Shown here piece by piece: positions 17,554 to 57,385 of a stretch of 64,000 nucleotides of DNA. The first letter of the stretch is position 1. Each line of letters begins with the position of its first letter. A model generated the notes under the pieces. The model was not told the DNA's origin. It searched no databases and saw only the letters and a program-made list of their open reading frames with translations. This DNA is from Candidatus Levybacteria bacterium RIFCSPHIGHO2_02_FULL_40_18 (GTDB taxonomy: Bacteria; Patescibacteriota; Microgenomatia; Levybacterales; GWA1-39-11): NCBI GenBank assembly GCA_001782235.1, contig MFOC01000007.1, forward strand, positions 86,799 to 150,798. Direction: 5' to 3'. A program made the position numbers and the translations under genes.

Positions 17554-17583
17554 TTGACAAAAAGTTATCCACATCTTTATACT
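17554..17583 (+). promoter_or_regulatory. dnaA promoter. TTGACA at 17554-17559, 18-nt spacer, TATACT at 17578-17583. A perfect DnaA box TTATCCACA sits at 17565-17573.
   Basis: Read directly. A DnaA box inside the promoter spacer indicates dnaA autoregulation. Confidence 0.65.
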
Positions 17584-17631
17584 CAAACCCCGCGAGAATT
17601 ATTTCGCATCTTTGGGGCAACCCTATTTTTT

Positions 17632-18966
17632 ATGGAAAAGCTCTGGAAGCAAGTTTTAGAAGAAATAGAACTCGAAGTATCAAAACCAATATTTCTCACT
17701 TTTTTCAAACCTACCGTTCTTGTTTCGCTTGAAAACTCCGTAGCAACCATTAATTCTCCAACACATATAACAGCGGAGTACATTGAAAAAAGATATTATT
17801 CTTTAATAAAAAAAGCTCTAGATAAAAAAACAGGACAAAATATAAGTATTATCTTTGCTGCAGGCGGATCCTCTCAGATAAATTTTAAAAGCAATAAGGG
17901 AGTAGGCCCTCTTTTTGTTAGCGACATAGAAAAAGATTCTAAAAAAATGCGGCCTGCAAGAATTAGGCCGGATTATACTTTTGAATCTCTGGCAGTATCA
18001 GACAGCAACCAGCTCGCCTATACGGCGGCTATGACTGTTGCCTCGTCTCCTGGAACAAAATACAATCCTCTTTTTCTTTATGGAACTGTCGGAGTGGGTA
18101 AAACTCATCTTATGAATGCTATAGCGAATAAAATTTTTGACGATAAAAAGAGCTTTAAACCCCTCTATTTAACGACGGAGGAATTCACGAACGAGGTTGT
18201 AGAGGCAATAAGAGATAAAACTACGGCAAATTTGAGAAGAAAATTTAGAAATGTTGATATACTTCTTTTGGATGATATCCAGTTTCTTGCCGGAAAAGAA
18301 AAAGTACAGGAAGAACTTTTTCATACATTTAACACTCTTATTGATAAGGGAAATCAAGTAGTTTTATCTTCCGATAGCCCCCCCCAAGAGCTTAAAAAAA
18401 TAGAAAAAAGATTAGCCTCCCGGTTTGAAGGAGGGCTCTTGGTTGACATAGAACCTCCTGACTTTGAGCTAAGATGCGCTATTTTATTAATAAAAAGCAG
18501 AAAATACGGCTTAAACCTAAGTCTTGAAGCTGCAAAAATTATTGCTGAGAAAATTGAGGACACGCGCGCACTCGAGGGGTTTTTGCTAAGACTTTCCTCT
18601 GTTTCTCAAGAAACTGACGATATCGATTTTGACCATGTTCTCTCTATTCTTAAGAAGAATAAAACATCCCCAGTTGTCTTTCATCCAGACACGATTGTTT
18701 CTACCGTCTGTTCTTTTTATAATATAAAACCAACACAGTTAAAAGGGGCAAAAAGAGATTCTTTTTTGGTAAGGCCAAGACATATTTGCATGTATCTTCT
18801 TAAAGAGGAGGCGGGCCTCACTTATGTTGAGATTGGAAATCTTCTTGGGGGTCGCGACCATTCAACCGTAATACATGCTGTGGAAAAGATTGGGAAACTT
18901 GCCTCTTCGTCTGATAAGACCCGTGAGGAAATTATGTTTATAAAAGGAAAAATAAAAGAATTTTAA
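17632..18966 (+). CDS. dnaA: Chromosomal replication initiator DnaA. The TTG start at 17554 in the ORF track is the promoter -35, not a start codon.
   Basis: MEKLWKQVLEEIE N-terminus, Walker A LFLYGTVGVGKTHL, Walker B ILLLDDIQFL, C-terminal DnaA-box-binding HTH. Confidence 0.9.
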   Translation: MEKLWKQVLEEIELEVSKPIFLTFFKPTVLVSLENSVATINSPTHITAEYIEKRYYSLIKKALDKKTGQNISIIFAAGGSSQINFKSNKGVGPLFVSDIEKDSKKMRPARIRPDYTFESLAVSDSNQLAYTAAMTVASSPGTKYNPLFLYGTVGVGKTHLMNAIANKIFDDKKSFKPLYLTTEEFTNEVVEAIRDKTTANLRRKFRNVDILLLDDIQFLAGKEKVQEELFHTFNTLIDKGNQVVLSSDSPPQELKKIEKRLASRFEGGLLVDIEPPDFELRCAILLIKSRKYGLNLSLEAAKIIAEKIEDTRALEGFLLRLSSVSQETDDIDFDHVLSILKKNKTSPVVFHPDTIVSTVCSFYNIKPTQLKGAKRDSFLVRPRHICMYLLKEEAGLTYVEIGNLLGGRDHSTVIHAVEKIGKLASSSDKTREEIMFIKGKIKEF

Positions 18967-22991: not shown

Positions 22992-25049
22992 CTATGAAGA
23001 AACTATTTTTATTCCTTGAGAGCTTTCATCTAGGTTGGCTTGCGAAATTTTTTCTTGCTCTTGAACGGGAGACGTGTTAGCAGGGGGGGCTGTCATATCT
23101 TGCGCCTGTGTCTCTGGTTGCTCTCCGGGAGCGGATTGAGCGTCAGCGATGGAGGCATCCTCGCTGACAGGCGTGGGCGACGTAGCGGTGGCTGCCTCTT
23201 CTTCATGGGCAAGAATATCTTGAGGTTTTGAGGTGATCAGATCATATTCATATTGTGACGCTATGAACTGCGCGGTTACATGGTTTTGTCCTGCAAAAAG
23301 AAGTCCTTCCCCAACCTGGGCGGTTACTAAAAATTGTTTCTCTCCTTCTGATAAAAATAACGTTTTTGCCAAAACTTCAACTTCTGACGAGTTCTGTTTC
23401 AAGAGAATTTGGACTGAGGAGTTTGAAAGAATAGACTTTCCATAGTCGCTTGACAGGAAATCTTCAATATCCTGAGTAAGGGTTGTCACGCCAAGAAAAT
23501 ATTTTCTTGCGCGCTTTGCTATCCCTTGCAAAAAGGAGGCAGAATCAGGATGCTTCATAAGATACCATGCCTCATCAACCACCAAAATTCTTTTCTTAAG
23601 TTTTGTTCTGACGCGATTCCAAATAAAATCTAAAACCACGTGCATTGCAATTGGACGCAAAACATCCTCGAGCTGTTTAAGAGAAAAGACGGTTAATTGA
23701 TTTTTTATGTTGTAATTCGTCTGCTGATTAAATAGCCCAGAGAATCCACCTTTTACATATTTTTCAAGACGGAAAGAGAGATCCCTTGCCTCCGGCTCCT
23801 CCATATTAAGTAAGGTTTTATAAAGGTCCTCCAAGATCGGCGGCTCGTTTTTGTAGGTTGCAGGATCCGGCGTTATTCCCTTTTGCTTGTAACAAAGAAC
23901 AATCGCTCTATCTAAAATTGCCTCTTGTGTTGGAGACATCTCCCCAAGCATTGTTTTTAGGAGTCCGTGAAGAGATAATATTTTTATTCCAAGCTGGGCA
24001 TCTGTCATGTCTTCTTGGAGAAGGGCAAACGGGTTAATTTTTACCTCAGAACTTTTTGAGAAGTTTATATATTCGCCATCCAAAGCATGACATAAGGTTT
24101 TGTATTCATCTTCGGGATCTATTATTAAAATCTCGGCGTCAAACATCATTTGCCGCAAAATTTCAAGCTTTACCAAAAAAGATTTTCCGGCGCCCGATTT
24201 TCCAAAGACCACTTCATTTGCATTCTCAAAAGAAAAGCGGTCAACAATCGCAAGCGAATTATTTATGGTATTCACGCCATATAGAATTCCGTTTGGATGG
24301 GAAATTTCATAAGACGTAAATGGAAAAGTTGAAGCCAAAGACGTTGTGTCCATATTGCGGGTTATAAATAGCTTGTCGATTCCTGCTGGAAGACAGGTTT
24401 TGAATCCGTCTTCCATCTGAAGCGTTGCGGGTTTTACAACCAAAAGGTTTGAGGAAAGCAAAGACTGAAGTTCTTTGGTTTTTATATCTAAATTCTCAAC
24501 TGAATCTGCTGCCAGGGTTATATATAGACCAAATTGGAAAAACCGTTCAAGACCTCGCGCTAGCTCTTCTCGGAGCGCTATAGCATCTTCAAGCCCCGCC
24601 TGAATTTTAGGATCCGGCTCAAGCCCCTGTTCCGCATCTGACTGAAGTGTTGCCTCCATCTCGGAGATTTTCCTTCGCAGGTTTCCCAAAACATCCTTGC
24701 TTTCAACCGGATATACAAACATTGATATGTTCATTGTTTCTTTATAGTCAATAAGAATTGAGAGCCAGTTTGGAGAAACCTGACGAGGGTAATCTACAAC
24801 AAAAAACGTTCTGAAAAACTTATCGCCAACTCTTATATTTTTAAAATCTACCTCAACTGAGGAGGGGGATATAAGGTCAACAACAGAAACCGAGCCTGAC
24901 TTGAGAGCATTATATCCTTGCGAGGAGGCGCGTTTTTGAGCAGGCCCCGCACCGTCCCGGTGCGGGGCAGGGACTTTCTGGATCTGAGCGTTAGCGGCGG
25001 TTGGATCCGATATAGCCTGTGTCTGTTGTTTTTTATCTTCATCAAACAT
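22992..25049 (-). CDS. VirB4/TrbE/CagE-family T4SS ATPase, central and C-terminal ATPase portion
   Basis: LISPSSVEVDFKNIRVGDKFFRTFFVVDYP region; Walker A VFGKSGAGKSF; Walker B ILVVDEAWYLM. Confidence 0.85.
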   Translation of the reverse strand: MFDEDKKQQTQAISDPTAANAQIQKVPAPHRDGAGPAQKRASSQGYNALKSGSVSVVDLISPSSVEVDFKNIRVGDKFFRTFFVVDYPRQVSPNWLSILIDYKETMNISMFVYPVESKDVLGNLRRKISEMEATLQSDAEQGLEPDPKIQAGLEDAIALREELARGLERFFQFGLYITLAADSVENLDIKTKELQSLLSSNLLVVKPATLQMEDGFKTCLPAGIDKLFITRNMDTTSLASTFPFTSYEISHPNGILYGVNTINNSLAIVDRFSFENANEVVFGKSGAGKSFLVKLEILRQMMFDAEILIIDPEDEYKTLCHALDGEYINFSKSSEVKINPFALLQEDMTDAQLGIKILSLHGLLKTMLGEMSPTQEAILDRAIVLCYKQKGITPDPATYKNEPPILEDLYKTLLNMEEPEARDLSFRLEKYVKGGFSGLFNQQTNYNIKNQLTVFSLKQLEDVLRPIAMHVVLDFIWNRVRTKLKKRILVVDEAWYLMKHPDSASFLQGIAKRARKYFLGVTTLTQDIEDFLSSDYGKSILSNSSVQILLKQNSSEVEVLAKTLFLSEGEKQFLVTAQVGEGLLFAGQNHVTAQFIASQYEYDLITSKPQDILAHEEEAATATSPTPVSEDASIADAQSAPGEQPETQAQDMTAPPANTSPVQEQEKISQANLDESSQGIKIVSS

Positions 25050-43168: not shown

Positions 43169-45673
43169 ATGAAATTACAAGGACTTTCGCAAAAAGTATT
43201 TTTGGATCGCTATTCTTTAAAAGATAAGAAGGGGAAGGCTCTCGAAAAAACCCCTGACCGCATGTGGAGGAGAGTGGCCGCGGCTGTTGCCGGTGTTGAG
43301 ACAACTTCCCAAAATAAGAAGCGCTGGGAAAAGGAATTTTATTCTGCGATGCAGGATTTTAAATATGTTCCCGGAGGAAGAATTTTGGCAGGCGCTGGGA
43401 CCGGTTTTGAAGTTACCTACTATAATTGCTTTGTAATTCCATCCCCCAAAGACTCACGTGAAGGGATTCTTGAAACCCTCAAGCAAATGGTAGAGATTAT
43501 GGCTCGCGGTGGGGGAGTCGGAATAAATCTTTCTTCCTTGCGACCGCGCGGGTTTCGCGTTGAAAAAGTAAACGGCTTCTCTTCAGGTCCCTGCAATTGG
43601 GCAGAACTTTTCTCCGTTGCAACAAAAGACATTATTCAACAGGGAGGTAGTCGCCGAGGGGCATTAATGCTTATGCTCTGGGATTGGCATCCTGATATTG
43701 AAGAATTTATTACTGTTAAACAAGATCTTTCCCGTATAAATGGCGCAAACCTTTCTGTCTGTGTTTCAGATTCTTTCATGGAGCAGGTTGAGCGCGATGG
43801 AGATTGGGACCTTGTCTTTCCGGACAGAAGAGATCCCGAGTATGATACAAAATGGGACGGAGATATATACACATGGCGTGCAATGGGCAAAAAGGTTGTA
43901 AAACATAAGACTATCAAAGCGCGCTACATGTGGGATCTAATTGCCGAGGCCGCCTGGAGATCTGCAGAGCCGGGAGTTGTCTTCATGGAACGATACAATA
44001 AACTGCACAATAATTGGTATTGGAACCGAATTAACTGCGTAAATCCATGCGGAGAGGAGGGCTTGCCGCCGTGGGGAGTTTGCAATCTTGGATCAATTAA
44101 TCTTTCAGCTCTTGTTCACGGCGATAATATTGACAAGAAGGGAAAGTTTGATTTTTCTCTACTTAAGAAAGTCACTCGGGCCGCTGTCCGATTTCAAGAC
44201 AATGTTATTGAAATGGATCCTTATATTTTTGATGGGATCAAAAAGACCCAATATGAAGGAGAAAGAAGAATAGGTCTTGGGACAATGGGTCTTGGAGATG
44301 CTTTGATTAAGCTTCATTTAAGATATGGGTCACCTGAATCCCTTCAGTTTATCGATCGCGTTTATAGAATTATAAGAGACGAGGCGTATAGGACCTCAGT
44401 TGAAATTGGCGCTGAGAAAGGATCTTTTGGAAAGTTTGACAAAAAACTTTATCCTCAGGGCAAGTTCATACAACTGTTGCCTGCTGATATTCAGAATGGA
44501 ATTAAGAAAAAAGGCATTAGAAATTCCATACTTCTTATGCAAGCGCCAACCGGGTCAACATCTCTTCTTGTTAATACAACCTCTGGAATTGAGCCGGTTT
44601 TTGAATTCGAATTTGTGAGGCGCGATAGAATAGGCGAGCATGTTGTCCGCCACTACTTATATGAACAATGGTATAAAAAACACGGCAAGGATATTGAGGC
44701 AGGCAAAATTGAGCGGCCCGATTTCTTTGTGTCGGCGAATGATCTGACGCCAGAAGATCATGTCAGGGCTCAGGCAATAATTCAAAAATATGTTGATGCA
44801 TCTATTTCAAAAACAGTTAATGCGCCTAATGCCCACACAGTTGAAGAAGTAAAAAAGCTTTACAACATGGCATACAAACTTGGTTGCAAAGGCGTTACAT
44901 ATATGAGAGAAGGATCCCGCGCAGGGGTCTTGGAACGCATAGATGATAAGAAGAAGGAAGAAGCTCCAAAGGTTGAAGTAAAAGCCCCACCGGTTACAAA
45001 GAGGCCGCCTGTTATGTATGGCTTGACTTACAAAACCCAAACGCCACTTGGAGACGCATTCATTACTATCAATAAAGATGAAGGAGGAAATCCCTTTGAA
45101 GCCTTTATAACCATTGGCAAATCAGGTTCTGATGTTGCTGCCATGACTGATGCTTTGGGCCGAATGATTTCCCTGACTCTTCGCCTTCAGAGTCCTATAC
45201 CGGCACGAGAACGCGTCAGACAGATTGTCGCACAGCTTTCGGGAATCGGCGGCATGAGAACAATCGGATTTGGAGAAAACAGGGTTCGGTCTGTGCCTGA
45301 TGCTGTAGCAAAAGTTTTAGCAGAGGAATTTGGATTTTCAGTCAACGGGATAGTTCGTGATCTAAAGACTTCGGAAAATACCGTAACAAACGGCCAGGTA
45401 GTTTCGGTATCGAATGGCGCAAACGGAAACGGAATTGTGGCAAAAACAAATGGCATCGTCACAAGTGCCAATGGTATAGCAAGTCCTGCGACTGCGCTAA
45501 ATGAATCGCAAAGCGAGGCGGCAGAGCAGACAGTTGTTATGGAACAATTAAGTATTGGGAGTGAGACCTCGACGCATAGCGCATTTGATTTTTGTCCCTC
45601 ATGCGGAGCAGCAACGCTCGCGCATGAAGAGGGATGCAAAAAATGCTATAGCTGCGGCTATAGTGAATGTTAA
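43169..45673 (+). CDS. nrdJ: Class II (adenosylcobalamin-dependent) ribonucleotide reductase
   Basis: Length and motifs: ...VPGGRILAGAGT..., catalytic NPCGEEGLPPWGVCNLGSINL, C-terminal Cys cluster CKKCYSCGYSEC. Confidence 0.85.
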   Translation: MKLQGLSQKVFLDRYSLKDKKGKALEKTPDRMWRRVAAAVAGVETTSQNKKRWEKEFYSAMQDFKYVPGGRILAGAGTGFEVTYYNCFVIPSPKDSREGILETLKQMVEIMARGGGVGINLSSLRPRGFRVEKVNGFSSGPCNWAELFSVATKDIIQQGGSRRGALMLMLWDWHPDIEEFITVKQDLSRINGANLSVCVSDSFMEQVERDGDWDLVFPDRRDPEYDTKWDGDIYTWRAMGKKVVKHKTIKARYMWDLIAEAAWRSAEPGVVFMERYNKLHNNWYWNRINCVNPCGEEGLPPWGVCNLGSINLSALVHGDNIDKKGKFDFSLLKKVTRAAVRFQDNVIEMDPYIFDGIKKTQYEGERRIGLGTMGLGDALIKLHLRYGSPESLQFIDRVYRIIRDEAYRTSVEIGAEKGSFGKFDKKLYPQGKFIQLLPADIQNGIKKKGIRNSILLMQAPTGSTSLLVNTTSGIEPVFEFEFVRRDRIGEHVVRHYLYEQWYKKHGKDIEAGKIERPDFFVSANDLTPEDHVRAQAIIQKYVDASISKTVNAPNAHTVEEVKKLYNMAYKLGCKGVTYMREGSRAGVLERIDDKKKEEAPKVEVKAPPVTKRPPVMYGLTYKTQTPLGDAFITINKDEGGNPFEAFITIGKSGSDVAAMTDALGRMISLTLRLQSPIPARERVRQIVAQLSGIGGMRTIGFGENRVRSVPDAVAKVLAEEFGFSVNGIVRDLKTSENTVTNGQVVSVSNGANGNGIVAKTNGIVTSANGIASPATALNESQSEAAEQTVVMEQLSIGSETSTHSAFDFCPSCGAATLAHEEGCKKCYSCGYSEC

Positions 45674-45856
45674 GTTAGCAATTAGCAATTAGTTTCAAAT
45701 AAGAGTATATATTTGGTAATCGCCGTGAAAGTCGGCGGAACTGCCGGTACTGTAATATCCAGAAAACAATATATACTTTCATCCCCGAGCAGGGTTAAGC
45801 GAAGAAGAATTCCTCTCGGGTTATCGAGAGGTTTTTTTGTGAGCAATAGTTGAACT
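45674..45856 (+). promoter_or_regulatory. Structured 5' leader upstream of the adenosyltransferase gene: hairpin CGCCGUGAAAGUCGGCG (45721-45737), then an intrinsic terminator immediately before the start codon
   Basis: Terminator stem CCUCUCG-GGUUAU-CGAGAGG followed by UUUUUUU. Architecture typical of a riboswitch or attenuator; class not identified. Confidence 0.4.
45812..45839 (+). terminator. Rho-independent terminator (7-bp GC-rich stem plus T7) about 18 nt upstream of the adenosyltransferase start codon
   Basis: cctctcgggttatcgagaggttttttt read directly. Confidence 0.6.
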
Positions 45857-46408
45857 ATGCCTATATATACAAAGACAGGGGATCGCGGAAAAACATCGCT
45901 CTTTTCAGGAAAAAGAGTCTGGAAGCATGATCTCCGTGTCGAAGCATACGGAACCGTTGACGAGCTAAATACTATTTTGGGGCTAGCGCTTGCAGCGCTT
46001 CCTCACAAGAAAAATAAACAAATAGCATATCTTCGTGACTTAATTTTAGAGGTCCAAAAATCCCTTTTTTACATTGGTTCTTATTTTGCCGACCTTCCTG
46101 ACACTCTCGAAGAGATAGATTTGATAGGTAAAACTAATCGGTTCGAAAAAGAAATCGATCTAATGACGAACAAGATGCCAAAGCTTGCGAACTTTATTTT
46201 TCTTGATGGCGGATTGGCCGGGAGTTTTCTCCAGAATGCCCGGGCAATTGCCAGACGGGCAGAAAGGCAAATTGTGAAACTTTCTAAAAAAGAGAAGATA
46301 GATGTGAGACTACTTAAATATATAAACAGGCTCTCCGATTTGTTTTTCACTATGGCGCGTTACGCAAATCATATTGAAGGGAAAAAAGAAAGGATTTGGG
46401 AAAGATAA
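45857..46408 (+). CDS. ATP:cob(I)alamin adenosyltransferase, PduO/MMAB type
   Basis: MPIYTKTGDRGKTSLFSGKRVWKHDLRVEAYGTVDELNTILG N-terminal signature. Confidence 0.8.
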   Translation: MPIYTKTGDRGKTSLFSGKRVWKHDLRVEAYGTVDELNTILGLALAALPHKKNKQIAYLRDLILEVQKSLFYIGSYFADLPDTLEEIDLIGKTNRFEKEIDLMTNKMPKLANFIFLDGGLAGSFLQNARAIARRAERQIVKLSKKEKIDVRLLKYINRLSDLFFTMARYANHIEGKKERIWER

Positions 46409-48461: not shown

Positions 48462-48499
48462 CTTACAAACGCTGCTTCGTGCGAAGCCGCGTTTGACGC

Positions 48500-48854
48500 G
48501 GTGGAGATGGGGGGCTTTGAGCCCCCGTCCAAAAAAGCATCTATAAAAACATCTACAAGCTTATTCAATTATTTATTGTCATCATGCAAACTCCAATTGA
48601 AAGGATTGAACATGACTAAGATTTAAATTGTTCGAACAAAATCTAAATCGGAACTTTGTCTATATCCAAACTTTGTTTATGCCCATATCTGATCGTTTGG
48701 AAAAATCTAGATATGAACACCAGTTTAAGCTACTGCGTAGCTGTAGGCCGGACTAACATTTCTGTTAGCATTTATTTTTGATACATTTTTACGATTAGTA
48801 TCATTATCGGCTTGCAGTTTTTAAAGAGCAATTCTGTCGATGCAATGCATCCCC
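48500..48854 (-). ncRNA. ssrA: tmRNA (ssrA), about 355 nt, CCA not fully encoded
   Basis: Acceptor stem GGGGAUG pairs with CAUCUCC. tRNA-like T-arm GGGGG-CUCAAAG-CCCCC at the 3' end. Internal tag ORF GCU AAC AGA AAU GUU AGU CCG GCC UAC AGC UAC GCA GUA GCU UAA gives ANRNVSPAYSYAVA then stop. Located immediately downstream of smpB. Confidence 0.65.
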
Positions 48855-48874: not shown

Positions 48875-49315
48875 CTAGAGGATGGTTTTCAACTCGCGCT
48901 CCTGTTCGCGCTCGATGGCCTCTCGACGCTTGTCGCGGCGCTTCTCGCGCTTGTTTTTGCTCTCAACTAAGGCCAGTTCAAGCTTAAAATTGCCGTCCTT
49001 AAGATATATTGACAAAGGAACAATCGTGAATTTTCCCTGGTCGAGCTTTGATTTTAAGGCCAGAATTTCCTTTTTGTGAAGCAAAAGTTTTCGTGTTCGG
49101 TCTTCTTGATAACCTTCAATCCGAGAAAATTCATAAGGGAAAATTTTTGCATTGATTAAGTTTGCTTCGCTTCCTGAAATTCGAACATAAGCCCCAGTGA
49201 TGTCGGCATGGCTAGCGCGAAGTGCTTTTACTTCGCTCCCGAGCAAAACAATCCCAGCCTCAATCTTTTCAAGAGGTTTATATGATTTTATAAAACGATT
49301 AACAATTCTCATCAA
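48875..49315 (-). CDS. smpB: SsrA-binding protein SmpB
   Basis: NRFIKSYKPLEKIEAGIVLLGSEVKALR...LLLHKKEILAL pattern; basic C-terminal tail. Confidence 0.9.
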   Translation of the reverse strand: MMRIVNRFIKSYKPLEKIEAGIVLLGSEVKALRASHADITGAYVRISGSEANLINAKIFPYEFSRIEGYQEDRTRKLLLHKKEILALKSKLDQGKFTIVPLSIYLKDGNFKLELALVESKNKREKRRDKRREAIEREQERELKTIL

Positions 49316-52328: not shown

Positions 52329-54053
52329 TTATTGGCGTTCTACATTGAATAGTGGACCGACGATTTGAATATTTGCCGGGGCTCTGAGATTAAACCAGTT
52401 TTTAAATTCATCACCTGAAAAACTTTGTGATCCGCCGTCCCCCAAGATACCTACAGAAGTTGTTCGGCCAGCCGAAAAATCTGCTCCAATAGAAACGTCT
52501 GAGATATTTGAAAAAGGAGTTACTCCTCGATTTGAGAGCTCTTGCCGAACGCGAGCTTCATCCCATGTATCGGTACCCGCAGGATTTGGCTTATCAGTTT
52601 GATAAAGATGCTCTCCAGCGGATGAGTCAGCTTTTGCAAGCAAGATCACATTCATAATGTCTGCTACTTCAGAAGATTTAAGCCAGGCGGTTTTATTATA
52701 CTCTGATCGAGACCCCCAATCGCAATAAAACCACGGAGATTCGCGATCATAGGCATTTGAAAAAAGATCAGAGAATCCCGAGGCCGCGCCTGTTGTTGTA
52801 TCTATTGCATGTTTTGTCCAAGAGGTCGCGCTCCAGCCTGGAAGTTCTGACGTCGATAAAATATATCCGCCGTGAGTTGAAGAGTACCAAGCCTTAATTG
52901 GCGATCCGCCCTGAACCATGACCCAGCCGCGCGTGCTGTTCACTGCCTCTTCCCATGCGCCGCCTTTAGGTTCGGGTTTAAAGACCTGACAGGATTGAGT
53001 GGTGCAAATAGATCCCGCTCCATTGTTTGTATAAGAAAGAGCATAGGAGCGAGCGGCCACAGCCTGAGCTTTTAAGGCTTCCATTGCAAATGATGAAGGC
53101 ATTTCATAAATTCTTTTTACGTACTCCTCGATATTATAAGAGCCGTATCCCTCAACATTAATATTTATATCTTGGGAGTAATCTTTTTTCAGTTCGTAAT
53201 TTACATAATATGCTTCAAGGATTTGTTCTGCAGACTGTCCGGCGCGGGCTCTTCCGTCCGCTCCATATTGATTAAGACCGGTTCTGTTTGGGACGCCGTA
53301 GGTGAAGAAGGCGATTCTGGGAGAAAATCCCGGATCGCGGGTTCTATCATCAACACAGGCAGGAGCCGCGGTCGCGGCAGATCTTGGAATGTTTAATGCG
53401 GCAAGCCTTTGACCTAAAATTTCTTTTTGGCGGGCAGATAACTTTGCAATTTCACTTGACAATGTTGCTTGATATGCTTTTGCGCCCTTTACAACTTTTT
53501 CGATTTCTCCCTTTTCCTGTGCAAGCCTTTCTTTAATGCTCGCAAATTTTATTTCTTCCTCTTCAAGTTTTGCTTTTCGCGTTTCAAGATCAACAATCTT
53601 TAATGCAATGGAGGTTATCGTTTCTTTATCGCGGTCAGCATCTCTTTTTTGATAAATAATGATTCGAGTCATTTCAGCAGCATCTGCCTGGGAAATAAAG
53701 ACGAGAAGAGGGGAGAGAAAATAGCTTTTTATGTAGTAGTCGCGGACGGTTTTATTAAAAATAATTTTACTCTCTTCAAGCTCTTGATAGCCTTGTTCAA
53801 TGAATTTCTTCTTTTCTGCCAAATCGCGCTCAATTGCGGCAACCTGATTTTCTATACCTGTAAGTTGTTTTTGCAAGCTATTAAGTTGTGATTCAAGGGG
53901 TGCCGTTGCTTTTTGAGAGGCAGAAAGCGCTGCCTGAAGTTCGGTCAGTTTTTTATTGATATCGTCAAGCTCATCAGAGAAAACTTGAGGAACAACAAAA
54001 AGTTTGAACGCGAACAAAATACCCACAAGGAGGAGCAAGAAAAATCTTCCCAT
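52329..54053 (-). CDS. SpoIID/LytB-domain protein with N-terminal TM and coiled coil (peptidoglycan remodelling)
   Basis: EEYVKRIYEMPSSFAMEALKAQAVAARSYAL matches the SpoIID signature. Confidence 0.7.
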   Translation of the reverse strand: MGRFFLLLLVGILFAFKLFVVPQVFSDELDDINKKLTELQAALSASQKATAPLESQLNSLQKQLTGIENQVAAIERDLAEKKKFIEQGYQELEESKIIFNKTVRDYYIKSYFLSPLLVFISQADAAEMTRIIIYQKRDADRDKETITSIALKIVDLETRKAKLEEEEIKFASIKERLAQEKGEIEKVVKGAKAYQATLSSEIAKLSARQKEILGQRLAALNIPRSAATAAPACVDDRTRDPGFSPRIAFFTYGVPNRTGLNQYGADGRARAGQSAEQILEAYYVNYELKKDYSQDININVEGYGSYNIEEYVKRIYEMPSSFAMEALKAQAVAARSYALSYTNNGAGSICTTQSCQVFKPEPKGGAWEEAVNSTRGWVMVQGGSPIKAWYSSTHGGYILSTSELPGWSATSWTKHAIDTTTGAASGFSDLFSNAYDRESPWFYCDWGSRSEYNKTAWLKSSEVADIMNVILLAKADSSAGEHLYQTDKPNPAGTDTWDEARVRQELSNRGVTPFSNISDVSIGADFSAGRTTSVGILGDGGSQSFSGDEFKNWFNLRAPANIQIVGPLFNVERQ

Positions 54054-54198
54054 CGGAAATTCTATTATAGCAGATGTTATAGGTGCGAGAGAATTATGGG
54101 TGCGCTTGGATTCGAACCCCGTACAAAACTTACTTGTTCCCGAGGCTTACAGCCTCGCGTCACAAGAGCGTTTCTACGGGGCAAGCCAAAGACATCTG

Positions 54199-54269
54199 TA
54201 GGCCCGGAAGGAGTCGGACCTTCGTGTCGACTTTATAAGAGTCGTGTCCTACCGTTGAACGACGGGCCT
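54199..54269 (-). tRNA. tRNA with anticodon UAU (formally Ile, decoding AUA), 71 nt, CCA not encoded. T-loop UCCGACU is non-canonical (C at position 55).
   Basis: Hand-folded cloverleaf with perfect stems. Acceptor AGGCCCG/CGGGCCU, D GUUC-AACGGUA-GGAC, anticodon CGACU-CUUAUAA-AGUCG, T GAAGG-UCCGACU-CCUUC. Confidence 0.55.
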
Positions 54270-54371
54270 AAAAATTTCTAAAACGCTTGCTTATTATACC
54301 AATACTGGGGTTAAACTTGAAGCCGACAAGTGGTTATACCTTAATACTTTATACTTGATACTGAATACTTA

Positions 54372-56789
54372 CTAAATGGAGCCGCCAGGTCCGAGCCTTC
54401 CTTCTGGGCCTTTGTCAACGCTTGATTGAATATCGCCAAGCACTTCGTATAATCGCGATCTCTTAGCAATTTCTGCCTCAACCAATTCTTTTTGTTTTCC
54501 GTATTTGAGTCTTGATAATTCTCTAATTAATTCTGCGACTCTTGGATTTTCAAGCTTTTTCTCGGCAACCAAATCTCGAGTTAAGTCCAATGAAAATGGC
54601 GTGGTAGGCTCAGAATTAATCAGAGTTTTTACGTATGCATGGAATCTTTCAACATTAATTAAATCCGCTTCGTTAAACACCGGTTGAAATTCATGTTGCA
54701 GGTAATTTGCATCAGAAACTCCTACCCGAAATGAAATTAATGTTCCGACATTTCCAAAGATTGCGTTTTTAACATCCTCCTCAATTTGACCGATAAACTG
54801 GTTCGCAACCGTTAGGTTTAATCTATATTTTCGGGCCTCTGACAAAATTTGTCCAAAATCGGGAGTCGCAAAATTCTGAAACTCATCAACGTAAAGATAG
54901 AAATCCCTACGTTGGTCTTGCGGCACATCTTGCCTTGACATTGCTGCGGCAAGAATTTTTGGAACCAAAATTAAACCCAAGAAGGAGGAATTATCTTCTC
55001 CAATTTTTCCTTTGGCAAGAGAGATAAGTAAAATCTTTCCCTGGTCCATAACTTCTCGCAGTGAAAATGCGCTTTTTGATTGCCCTATGATATTTCTCAT
55101 CATGCGGTTTGTGACAAAGCGGCCGAATTTTGAAACTATATAATCCAACACCTCAGACTTATGAAAATCTGAGGTTTGCGCAATCTGATCAGTCCAGTAG
55201 CGGCGAACAATTGGATCTTGAACTTTCGGCAAGAGCTCCTGCACAAAGGAAGAATCGGTTAGGACTCGGACAACCTCAACAAAAGTATTCCCCGGCTCTG
55301 ACATAACAGTGTACATGGCATTTCTTATAGCATGCTCAAAACGCGGTCCAATAATGCCAGTTTTATTAGGATCATATAATTTGTACATAAGTCCTATTAT
55401 TGACGTAATTATTAGGTCTTTTTGCTCTTCGGTTTGAACGTCCAACATGTTTAGTCCCATTGGGCGTTCCGTGTCTCCCGGATCAAAAAGAATTACGTCT
55501 TCTGCGCGCTCCGGAGGAATGAGAGGCAAGAGCATATCGATTGTGTCATGAGGATCAATAAAACAAACTCCATATCCAGCGCGAATGTCTTGTAAGATCA
55601 TGTCTTTTAAAAATTCTGATTTTCCTACGCCTGTCTTACCTATAATATACATATGACGGCGTCTGTCATCCTCCCCGATATAAACAGGCCGCGAGATCCC
55701 GCGATAAATGCTTTTCCCAGTGTATAATCCGGCGGAAGGAATATTTGCGGGTGCAGGCGCGACTCGGGCACCTAGCCAATGGATAGCAGGTGTCTCAACC
55801 GTTTTATTTGGAAAATGAAAAATTGTTGCAAGTTCATCTGTTGTTAAAACTCCGGGGTTGTTTGGCACAAGCGGAAGTTGACGATAGATAAAATCAATCA
55901 TTGCCATTCCCTTAAACAATCTATGCTTCACTTTTTCAAAGGAGTTAAAAGAAGAGAACTGTGAGAATGAGCCCACAATATTTGTAAGATGTGCTTCTGC
56001 GGATTCCTTTGTTGAAGAAGCAGTAAGGATTCTAACATGCGTTTCAAATCCGGGCTTTGTAATCTTTTGCTCAATTGCCTCAAGTTCTTTTTGATCAACC
56101 GAGTATTTTGCAGTTTCAGGATTCGCCTCTCTCTTTTTAGTGGTTGTAATGTATGATCGGCCGCTTTTTTTCCAAGCGTCGCCGGTAAGGGTTATCAAAA
56201 TTTGTAAAGCCGCAGCTTCTCCTTCCTGCATTTTTCCTAATGTGCTTGTAATTGATGAAAGAGGATCAACCGGAAGATCCTTATAGGTTTTTATTGGAAG
56301 ATAATGAGCTTTTGAGAGCTTTAGTTGTGCGTAGGCGATTTTACCTGGATTTTCAAAAAGATTATATTCTTCAACCTGAAGAATCTGCGCGTCTGGATAG
56401 CTTCCATGAATCTGCTTTTCAACCATGTCGCGAAGCCTATTTGGCACGCCAACATAAAATCTTATATCTTGAGGTTTTGCGACTATTTCAAAAGATATAA
56501 TGTCGGGAACTTTAAGAAATCCAAAAATTCCCTTAGTTCCTGCGATTGAAGTAAGACCTGAGAATAATTGATCTGCAGCGTCTATTTTTATCTCGTTTTC
56601 GCGTGGGAGTGATACCTCAAGAAGAGATGAGTCAAGAGCCTTCTCGTGTCTTTCTTGGGATTTTCGCCAAAACCCTAATGCCAAAAAAATCCCTAACAGG
56701 CACGCAATAACTACGGATGCCATTAAAAAGGCTAGGAGAAAAACAAAGACTAGATTAATAATGGCTTGCGAAAAAGCATCAAGCTGCAC
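54372..56789 (-). CDS. VirD4/TraG-family type IV coupling-protein-like ATPase, with N-terminal TM helices and a roughly 350-aa pre-ATPase domain
   Basis: Walker A YIIGKTGVGKSEF followed by GVCFIDPHDTID (T4CP-like xIDPxGD). Walker B FYLYVDEFQNF. Confidence 0.6.
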   Translation of the reverse strand: MQLDAFSQAIINLVFVFLLAFLMASVVIACLLGIFLALGFWRKSQERHEKALDSSLLEVSLPRENEIKIDAADQLFSGLTSIAGTKGIFGFLKVPDIISFEIVAKPQDIRFYVGVPNRLRDMVEKQIHGSYPDAQILQVEEYNLFENPGKIAYAQLKLSKAHYLPIKTYKDLPVDPLSSITSTLGKMQEGEAAALQILITLTGDAWKKSGRSYITTTKKREANPETAKYSVDQKELEAIEQKITKPGFETHVRILTASSTKESAEAHLTNIVGSFSQFSSFNSFEKVKHRLFKGMAMIDFIYRQLPLVPNNPGVLTTDELATIFHFPNKTVETPAIHWLGARVAPAPANIPSAGLYTGKSIYRGISRPVYIGEDDRRRHMYIIGKTGVGKSEFLKDMILQDIRAGYGVCFIDPHDTIDMLLPLIPPERAEDVILFDPGDTERPMGLNMLDVQTEEQKDLIITSIIGLMYKLYDPNKTGIIGPRFEHAIRNAMYTVMSEPGNTFVEVVRVLTDSSFVQELLPKVQDPIVRRYWTDQIAQTSDFHKSEVLDYIVSKFGRFVTNRMMRNIIGQSKSAFSLREVMDQGKILLISLAKGKIGEDNSSFLGLILVPKILAAAMSRQDVPQDQRRDFYLYVDEFQNFATPDFGQILSEARKYRLNLTVANQFIGQIEEDVKNAIFGNVGTLISFRVGVSDANYLQHEFQPVFNEADLINVERFHAYVKTLINSEPTTPFSLDLTRDLVAEKKLENPRVAELIRELSRLKYGKQKELVEAEIAKRSRLYEVLGDIQSSVDKGPEGRLGPGGSI

Positions 56790-57197: not shown

Positions 57198-57281
57198 CGG
57201 AGGGTGTGGGAGTCGAACCCACTAGCCCCTTGCGGGGCGTGGTTTAGCAAACCACTCTCGTGACCGTCTGAGTCACCCTCC
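57198..57281 (-). tRNA. tRNA-Ser (anticodon GCU), type II with long variable arm, CCA not encoded
   Basis: Acceptor GGAGGGU/ACCCUCC, anticodon arm GUGGU-UUGCUAA-ACCAC, variable hairpin GCCCC-GCAA-GGGGC, T GUGGG-UUCGACU-CCCAC. Confidence 0.75.
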
Positions 57282-57300
57282 AAAACTAGAACGGAGTGTG

Positions 57301-57385
57301 CGGAGGGTACAGGATTCGAACCTGTGAAGGGATTGCTCCCTCGAGTTTTCAAGACTCGCGCAATTGGCCTCTATGCGAACCCTCC
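57301..57385 (-). tRNA. tRNA-Ser (anticodon UGA), type II, CCA not encoded
   Basis: Acceptor GGAGGGU/ACCCUCC, anticodon arm CGAGU-CUUGAAA-ACUCG, variable hairpin GGGA-GCAA-UCCC, T ACAGG-UUCGAAU-CCUGU. Confidence 0.75.

Follow-up and report, generated by a model that had tools for sequence, protein, structure and literature searches.

A tRNA-Ile(UAU) gene followed by the remnant of a former resident allele in a Levybacteria genome, and nested tRNA-Ile(UAU) genes at related loci

Results

Organization of the tRNA-Ile locus

The analysed stretch of DNA (hereafter the window) comprises 64,000 nucleotides of a Candidatus Levybacteria genome. On its minus strand, a gene encoding a VirD4-like type IV coupling protein is followed, in order, by a promoter-like block, a 71-nt tRNA gene, a single C, a stretch of about 100 nt and a gene with a SpoIID domain. 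Two types of tRNA-Ile(UAU) allele, termed class A and class B, are distinguished below. The features of the locus, in the direction of the minus strand, are the following.

57198..57385 (-): a pair of tRNA-Ser genes upstream of the VirD4-like gene, from Rfam
54372..56789 (-): the VirD4-like type IV coupling protein gene, with the Pfam domains TraG-D_C and TrwB_AAD_bind
54293..54321 (-): the predicted promoter of the tRNA-Ile locus, from conservation, with a -35-like TTCAAG (54316-54321), a 17-nt spacer and an extended -10 TGGTATAAT (54293-54301)
54270..54284 (-): a lineage-specific 15-nt leader, GTTTTAGAAATTTTT, without a counterpart in L168 and L172, which would have arrived with the incoming allele
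54199..54269 (-): a tRNA-Ile(UAU) of class B, probably functional, from ARAGORN, Rfam and three identical assemblies
54186..54197 (-): remnant part 1, AGATGTCTTTGG, the anticodon-stem end, variable loop and T-stem 5' strand of class A, with 11/12 positions matching
54117..54185 (-): a quasi-palindromic 69-nt insertion, which splits the remnant between positions 53 (T-stem) and 54 (T-loop) and whose removal restores the T-arm
54097..54116 (-): remnant part 2, TTCGAATCCAAGCGCACCCA, the T-loop, T-stem 3' strand, 3' acceptor strand and discriminator A of class A, from nhmmer
54051..54072 (-): the conserved native downstream flank, with an extended -10 TGCTATAAT (54064-54072) and the ATG of the SpoIID-domain gene (54051-54053)
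52329-54053 (-): the SpoIID-domain gene

GTDB species-representative genomes encode at least 597 relatives of the VirD4-like protein, the best of them (up to 75% identity) in assemblies of Candidatus Levyibacteriota and other Patescibacteria/CPR, and 5537 proteins match it at E <= 1e-100. A gene for a VirB4/TraG-type P-loop ATPase (22992-25049, minus strand) lies about 30 kb from the VirD4-like gene, indicating that the type IV secretion components are dispersed. VirD4 homologues have been reported from thousands of CPR genomes, usually apart from virB4 (bioRxiv 10.1101/2025.01.22.634366).

The two serine tRNA genes of the initial annotation are real, as Rfam scored Ser(UGA) at 57301-57385 (minus strand) with 53.1 bits and Ser(GCU) at 57198-57281 (minus strand) with 39.1 bits. 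Ser(GCU) was missed by both ARAGORN and the whole-window Rfam scan, and reached its score (threshold 29) when the region was scanned alone. The same pair is present at the related loci L001-L003, L113, L166, L174 and L175, in varying orientation.

The promoter block CTTCAAGTTTAACCCCA..TTGGTATAATA upstream of the tRNA also occurs in L168 and L172, is present as diverged copies in L173 and L175, and is kept, inverted along with the tRNA, in L082, L164 and L165. This conservation suggests that 54293..54321 serves as a promoter, which the consensus scan missed because the -35 is weak. Homology with L168 and L172 ends a few bases past the -10 box. At the opposite end, the arrangement of TG(C/T)TATAAT, 7-10 nt and ATG is common to L082, L168, L172, L173 and L175, and this flank at 54051..54072 marks the end of the original tRNA locus. 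The extended -10 of the SpoIID-domain gene lies only about 10 nt from its ATG, which implies a leaderless or nearly leaderless mRNA.

Several other features of the window were also recorded. A tmRNA gene (48499-48854, minus strand) scored 130 bits in Rfam; it was not called by ARAGORN in the window, though that of L003 is, and smpB lies beside it at 48875-49315 (minus strand). A match to the AdoCbl-II riboswitch at 45704-45777 (plus strand), just over threshold (39.8 versus 36.5 bits), lies directly after the gene at 43169-45673, which encodes a ribonucleotide reductase with a TSCPD domain, and before an open reading frame at 45857-46408. In addition, the window contains dnaA (17554-18966, plus strand), so the replication origin is probably near.

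The class-B tRNA-Ile(UAU)

ARAGORN called 54198-54269 (minus strand) as tRNA-Ile(tat), and the Rfam model RF00005 matched 54199-54269 (minus strand) over its complete length (model positions 1-71) with 57.7 bits, compared to a gathering score of 29. The 71-mer is thus a genuine tRNA with a UAU anticodon, as first read from the sequence. It has the acceptor stem AGGCCCG/CGGGCCU, the discriminator A73 and a variable loop of 4 nt, and its T-loop UCCGACU carries the C at position 55 that had been noticed earlier. The cloverleaf itself stands, whereas its stems are not all Watson-Crick paired as had been described, since the D-stem contains one U12-G23 wobble. The pair U12-A23 is part of the isoleucine identity rules of E. 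coli, in place of which the window tRNA has U12-G23. The anticodon loop is CUUAUAA, with the UAU anticodon accompanied by A37 and A73, and C4-G69 is present. The spacer sequence is identical across three independent assemblies (ENA, NCBI and JGI) of the same population, which rules out an assembly artefact.

The C at position 55, in place of the near-universal U, is found not only in the window (54215) but recurs in L004, L006, L024 and L172, as well as in the tRNA-Met of L023, L035 and L068. Since several independent tRNA alleles share this C, those CPR genomes can apparently do without pseudouridine-55.

Decoding of AUA codons

Among the 41 long open reading frames of the window, AUA makes up 451 of 1358 isoleucine codons (33%), or 27.3 per 1000 codons, a frequency that ranks as 'high' on the scale of PMC12514573. 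In a codon alignment of the VirD4-like gene with eight orthologues, the ATA codons of the window are aligned with ATT 50 times, ATA 43 times, ATC 13 times, a valine codon 6 times and ATG never; isoleucine codons thus occupy 106 of the 112 aligned positions. As ATA aligns with isoleucine codons and never with ATG, AUA is read as isoleucine here. At 48 of the 80 loci of related species, moreover, ARAGORN placed a tRNA-Ile(tat) no more than a few kb from the VirD4-like gene, mostly directly after it. The presence of the tRNA at this place is thus shared across the lineage, which marks it as syntenic rather than as cargo. Together, the synteny, the heavy use of AUA and the alignment to isoleucine indicate a routine AUA decoder of the lineage that is not borne by an element, and nothing points to the suggested roles in suppression or misacylation.

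No open reading frame with a PP-loop motif (SGGxDS), a possible TilS, was found in the 64-kb window. Three open reading frames contain the motif in the 1.6 Mb of related loci, and the clearest of them is MnmA-like by motif. The CAU tRNAs of the related loci are of only two types, one initiator-like and one elongator type. In this sample of partial genomic sequence, the window and the 1.6 Mb of related loci, neither tilS nor a tRNA-Ile(CAU) was seen. In UAU decoding of the Mycoplasma mobile type, isoleucyl-tRNA synthetase is adapted to U34, either by Arg in place of the Trp at E. coli position W905 or as an enzyme of eukaryotic type. Isoleucyl-tRNA synthetase was not among the 20 window open reading frames scanned with Pfam, including two of about 1000 amino acids.

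Decoding of AUA by a tRNA-Ile2(UAU), independent of TilS, has been described in Mycoplasma mobile (Taniguchi et al. 2013, PMC3575796). Similar to the present case, a genomic UAU-bearing tRNA-Ile of M. mobile reads AUA as isoleucine, and the codon is frequent. That study listed nine species in three clades and 371 distinct metagenomic tDNA-Ile(TAT) sequences, and UAU decoders were termed 'rare cases' in a 2026 preprint. Compared to those nine species, the UAU tRNA described here is spread across Levy-, Gottesman-, Woese-, Curtiss- and Daviesbacteria and other CPR lineages. Literature searches that joined CPR or Patescibacteria with lysidine or TilS returned nothing relevant. Across a large uncultured radiation, a UAU tRNA thus adjoins the same gene, and AUA is heavily used in this genome. 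Should these genomes lack TilS as well, the CPR would form the largest natural group, by a wide margin, in which AUA is told apart from AUG without lysidine.

A 32-nt remnant of a class-A tRNA gene

The stretch 54097-54198 (minus strand) that follows the live tRNA terminates in GGTTCGAATCCAAGCGCACCCA, a 22-mer that is unique in the window and of which no copy is expected by chance. The partner strand GGGTGCG was not found upstream on the right strand, in agreement with the first description of this stretch as a T-loop plus acceptor 3' strand that lacks a matching 5' half. A profile built from the 3' halves of tRNA-Ile(UAU) genes detected the tail (nhmmer, E = 0.0012), whereas RF00005 gave no match to 54097-54198 even at E <= 10. 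In a permissive Rfam scan of 53800-54500 the tRNA alone scored, and no known RNA family matched the fragment. A search for further copies of the 22-mer tail or of the hairpin in the window and 175 related loci returned only chance matches of 15-17 nt.

Further comparison resolved the stretch into two parts of a tRNA gene, separated by an insertion. Remnant part 1 matches AGATGTCCTTGG, as present in the intact genes of L168, L172, L090, L008, L003, L004 and L015, at 11 of 12 positions. Joined together, parts 1 and 2 are identical to the class-A 3' part of L168, L011 and L008 at 28 of 32 positions, compared to 15 of 32 for the adjoining live tRNA. With the 69 nt removed, the remnant and a class-A 5' half combine into a valid cloverleaf. 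Following the new 15-nt leader and the class-B tRNA, the order in the window is C, AGATGTC TTTGG, the 69 nt, and TTCGAAT CCAAG CGCACCC A, with the live tRNA and the remnant in the same orientation and that single C as the only nucleotide between them.

The fragment is the last 32 nt, from the variable loop to the discriminator, of a former resident class-A tRNA-Ile(UAU), in its native position. Among the options raised initially, that of a tRNA remnant was therefore the right one, given the 28/32 identity to class-A genes that are intact at the same site in sister genomes. The remnant is probably non-functional debris, and its length of only 32 nt makes estimates of its age weak.

Deletion of the 69-nt insertion restores the T-arm TTTGG TTCGAAT CCAAG. 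The approximately 100-nt stretch 54097-54198 folds into a long hairpin (-42.9 kcal/mol, z = -4.3), most of which is formed by the insertion. In place of the GCUUG/CAAGC stem first proposed, the minimum-energy fold pairs UUUGG with CCAAG. The insertion is single-copy in the window and the 175 related loci. Several origins for it were considered and set aside. Homology to the leader hairpins of L173 and L175 or to the insertions of L048 gave marginal local matches, with 8 to 100 of 500 shuffled sequences scoring as well. A tRNA-Tyr-like anticodon arm or a reduced tRNA was rejected on inspection, the hairpin having no D or T arms. A tRNA intron, either of the bulge-helix-bulge type or of group I, was rejected as well, given that the 5' exon is absent, the ends of the insert pair with each other and not with the exon, and no Rfam intron matches. 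Scans of viral contigs and blastn against phage records gave no match to the window tRNA or the class-A anticodon arm, which speaks against a phage or provirus origin, and the related loci, viral contigs and phage records yielded no donor sequence for either the live allele or the 69-nt insertion.

The same site in relatives

At the corresponding site of L168-L171 (VirD4-like protein 86% identical) and L172 (87%), the same promoter is followed, after a few bases, by an intact class-A tRNA (...AGTAGATGTCCTTGGTTCGAATCCAAGCATGCCCA) and then by the same SpoIID promoter, and the fragment is absent. The class-A 3' part in these sister genomes reads ...AGTAG ATGTC CTTGG TTCGAAT CCAAG CATGCCC A, followed after about 15-25 nt by TG(C/T)TATAAT..ATG. 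The remnant thus occupies the native position of a class-A homologue, between a conserved promoter and a conserved downstream flank. Class B differs from class A in the acceptor stem, the D-arm, the T-arm and the 4-nt variable loop. The alleles of the close relatives are all of class A, and none resembles the live allele of the window. Its nearest alleles were found in distant lineages, namely L028 (Curtissbacteria; 89% over 57 nt), L063 and L025.

Among genomes with a VirD4-like protein 83-91% identical to that of the window, the site has five arrangements. In addition to the forward class-A gene of L168-L172, the whole promoter and tRNA cassette is inverted with respect to the VirD4-like gene in L082 (2700-2772), L164 and L165, a group to which the closest relatives (90-91%) belong. 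In L166 the tRNA is flanked by an HTH gene and a MazEF module, in L174 it has been relocated beside the tRNA-Ser pair, and in L173 and L175 the tRNA genes have leaders of 45-60 nt. The tRNA-Ile locus is plainly unstable among close relatives.

A tRNA-Ile(UAU) on the opposite strand was also seen in L003, L005, L015 and L029. Beside an inverted tRNA-Ile(UAU) in L136 (2350-2470), a 37-nt unit, made up of the first 9 nt of the tRNA and upstream sequence, is repeated three times in tandem.

Probable replacement of the resident allele

We consider it likely, from these sequence comparisons, that the class-A resident gave way to a complete, foreign-type tRNA-Ile(UAU) allele, leaving behind the 32-nt remnant now split by 69 nt. 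The incoming allele would have been placed inside or over the resident gene, destroying it, and would have taken over its native promoter. The cell would have survived this replacement because the incoming DNA brought the same essential tRNA. The live allele looks foreign, as it is unlike those of all close relatives and has its nearest counterparts in distant lineages. We infer its foreign origin, the order of events and the mechanism of insertion from the arrangement of the locus and its relatives. With the same good confidence, which applies to the explanation as a whole, the class-B tRNA would be the working AUA decoder of this Levybacteria-like CPR bacterium, transcribed from the conserved promoter of the locus. 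One point counts against the replacement: the junction in the window lies at about position 42 of the old gene, compared to the centre of the anticodon loop at the nested loci described below, and the old 5' half is wholly gone, so that extra deletions must be assumed.

An improbable alternative is that no foreign DNA was involved, and that the ancestor carried ancient tandem paralogues, class B followed by class A, of which the sister genomes lost class B and the lineage of the window lost the 5' part of class A. The remnant adjoins the live gene on its downstream side and is co-oriented with it, which fits such a pair, and so does the occurrence of both allele types across the Microgenomates, the CPR subgroup that includes the Levybacteria, with L028 as an intermediate. 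However, neither a class-B gene nor a tandem pair is present in the close relatives examined (VirD4-like protein 83-91% identical, five configurations), and the remnant, still 28/32 identical to orthologous genes, argues for a recent inactivation. These two observations, a site without class B in close relatives and a well-preserved remnant, disfavour the tandem pair, and the 15-nt leader of the live gene is likewise without a counterpart in the sisters.

The fragment had also been read as the attachment-site scar of an integrated element, and the VirD4-like gene as an island bracketed by tRNA loci. Fragments of tRNA 3' ends are classic markers of island ends, where their duplication as att repeats at tRNA or tmRNA genes marks the ends of integrated elements. 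The present fragment resembles these in being a partial tRNA 3' end downstream of an intact tRNA in the same orientation. The locus is clearly recombination-prone, and tyrosine recombinase genes adjoin tRNA-Ile(UAU) in L012, L027, L035 and L038. Nevertheless, it is very improbable that an element integrated here at the tRNA 3' end, with the fragment as the displaced att repeat and the VirD4-like gene as cargo. The fragment comes from the other allele and matches the 3' end of the live tRNA at only 15 of 32 positions without a direct repeat, only 1 nt separates the two, which leaves no cargo or element between them, and the neighbouring window open reading frames contain no integrase domain. 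The recombinases elsewhere are XerC/D-like, with divIC next to them in L012 and L038, which suggests housekeeping enzymes rather than element integrases. Furthermore, duplication of an att site yields no upstream 5' halves, and the related loci have such 5' halves. As for the bracketing itself, the VirD4-like gene, present in at least 597 genomes, is conserved over many species together with the tRNAs that flank it, the upstream tRNA-Ser and downstream tRNA-Ile(UAU) recur in relatives with varying orientation and position, and the G+C content is flat and not anomalous.

Least probable of all is a functional structured RNA, in which the hairpin and the T-loop/acceptor tail would form a tRNA-like element that might, for example, signal 3' processing or termination of the tRNA, or act as a decoy for enzymes that bind tRNA. 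In favour of this reading, the fold is stable, the T-loop sequence is intact and the leader and trailer around the live tRNA have the capacity to pair (82% over 17 nt, a stretch that includes the acceptor stem). Against it, no relative examined has the fragment, even where the neighbouring sequence is 86-91% identical, and the fragment matches nothing in Rfam, has neither a U-tract nor a terminator call, contains a hairpin of single copy, and has pieces that are explained base for base as the remnant of a tRNA gene.

For the window itself, these results mostly tidy up the picture, with a normal tRNA and a pseudogene fragment in place of an island border or a new RNA. Of wider interest are the decoding of a heavily used codon, AUA, by a UAU tRNA throughout the lineage, and the pattern of nested-gene replacement at related loci.

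Nested tRNA-Ile(UAU) genes at related loci

Searches with profiles of the 5' and 3' half-genes revealed five related loci, all on the minus strand, at which co-oriented half-genes of another allele flank an intact tRNA-Ile(UAU).

L013:9808-10007 (-): nested tRNA-Ile(UAU) locus
L020:8321-8484 (-): nested tRNA-Ile(UAU) locus
L027:7843-8070 (-): nested tRNA-Ile(UAU) locus
L028:8683-8852 (-): nested tRNA-Ile(UAU) locus
L048:2500-2950 (-): nested tRNA-Ile(UAU) locus

Both halves remain at three of the five loci, where the intact gene lies inside the anticodon loop of the other allele. The inner tRNA has a leader of 11-17 nt and a trailer of 28-40 nt, which are complementary to each other. Over the five loci, the 5' halves stop at ...CTTA in six of seven cases and the 3' halves start at TAA... 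in four of four, so that the break TTA|TAA divides the palindrome TTATAA of U33-A38 exactly in the middle. The outer halves of L013 have fully complementary stems and join into a perfect tRNA-Ile(UAU) cloverleaf; the 201-nt region of this locus adopts a tRNA-within-tRNA fold, with the leader-trailer helix in addition (-72.7 kcal/mol, z = -4.7). The outer shells of L027, L028 and L048 are stacked two deep, decayed or without 3' halves. In Rfam, the inner genes alone score at the nested loci (65-77 bits), and the intron mode of ARAGORN did not call the outer genes. The decay of the outer copies in L027, L028 and L048 indicates that they are not maintained as spliced genes. The genes that neighbour the nested loci are housekeeping genes.

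Split tRNAs (in Nanoarchaeum) and non-canonical tRNA introns are known from archaea. The nested loci resemble such split or intron-containing genes in being interrupted in the anticodon loop, with complementary leader and trailer flanking the interruption, and the window remnant is likewise interrupted, at 53/54. By contrast, the interruption at the nested loci is a whole second tRNA gene, the break lies at 35/36 instead of 37/38, and no bulge-helix-bulge is evident.

The five nested loci suggest a recurrent process of self-replacement, of which the remnant in the window may be a decayed case. We tentatively propose, as a scheme that could well turn out otherwise, that a compact site-specific cassette, consisting of a tRNA-Ile(UAU) with its complementary leader and trailer, repeatedly replaces the tRNA-Ile(UAU) of CPR bacteria (Microgenomates). 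The cassette would insert at TTA|TAA, the centre of the anticodon loop of the resident gene, and capture its promoter, whereas the old gene would remain as two half-gene shells that subsequently decay. The window would then represent a late, eroded stage, in which nothing was left of the 5' shell, and the 3' shell had been cut back to position 42 and disrupted again. An insertion into a presumably essential single-copy tRNA gene should survive only when a working copy is supplied, which would explain why every insert carries one. A restriction-type cut was also considered; TTATAA is not under-represented genome-wide (observed/expected 1.0), which makes a simple hexamer-specific nuclease unlikely. 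A tRNA gene inside the anticodon loop of its own copy hints at the targeted swapping of an essential single-copy tRNA gene, a process that would be relevant to the movement and replacement of tRNA genes between lineages.

In addition to the tRNA-Ile(UAU) loci, the intron mode of ARAGORN reported a tRNA-Met, a tRNA-Leu(CAA) and a tRNA-Arg(UCU) with insertions of about 184-194 nt in the anticodon loop (L008:7045-7307, L055:9259-9513 and L076:5027-5316), which are candidate introns or nested or disrupted genes.
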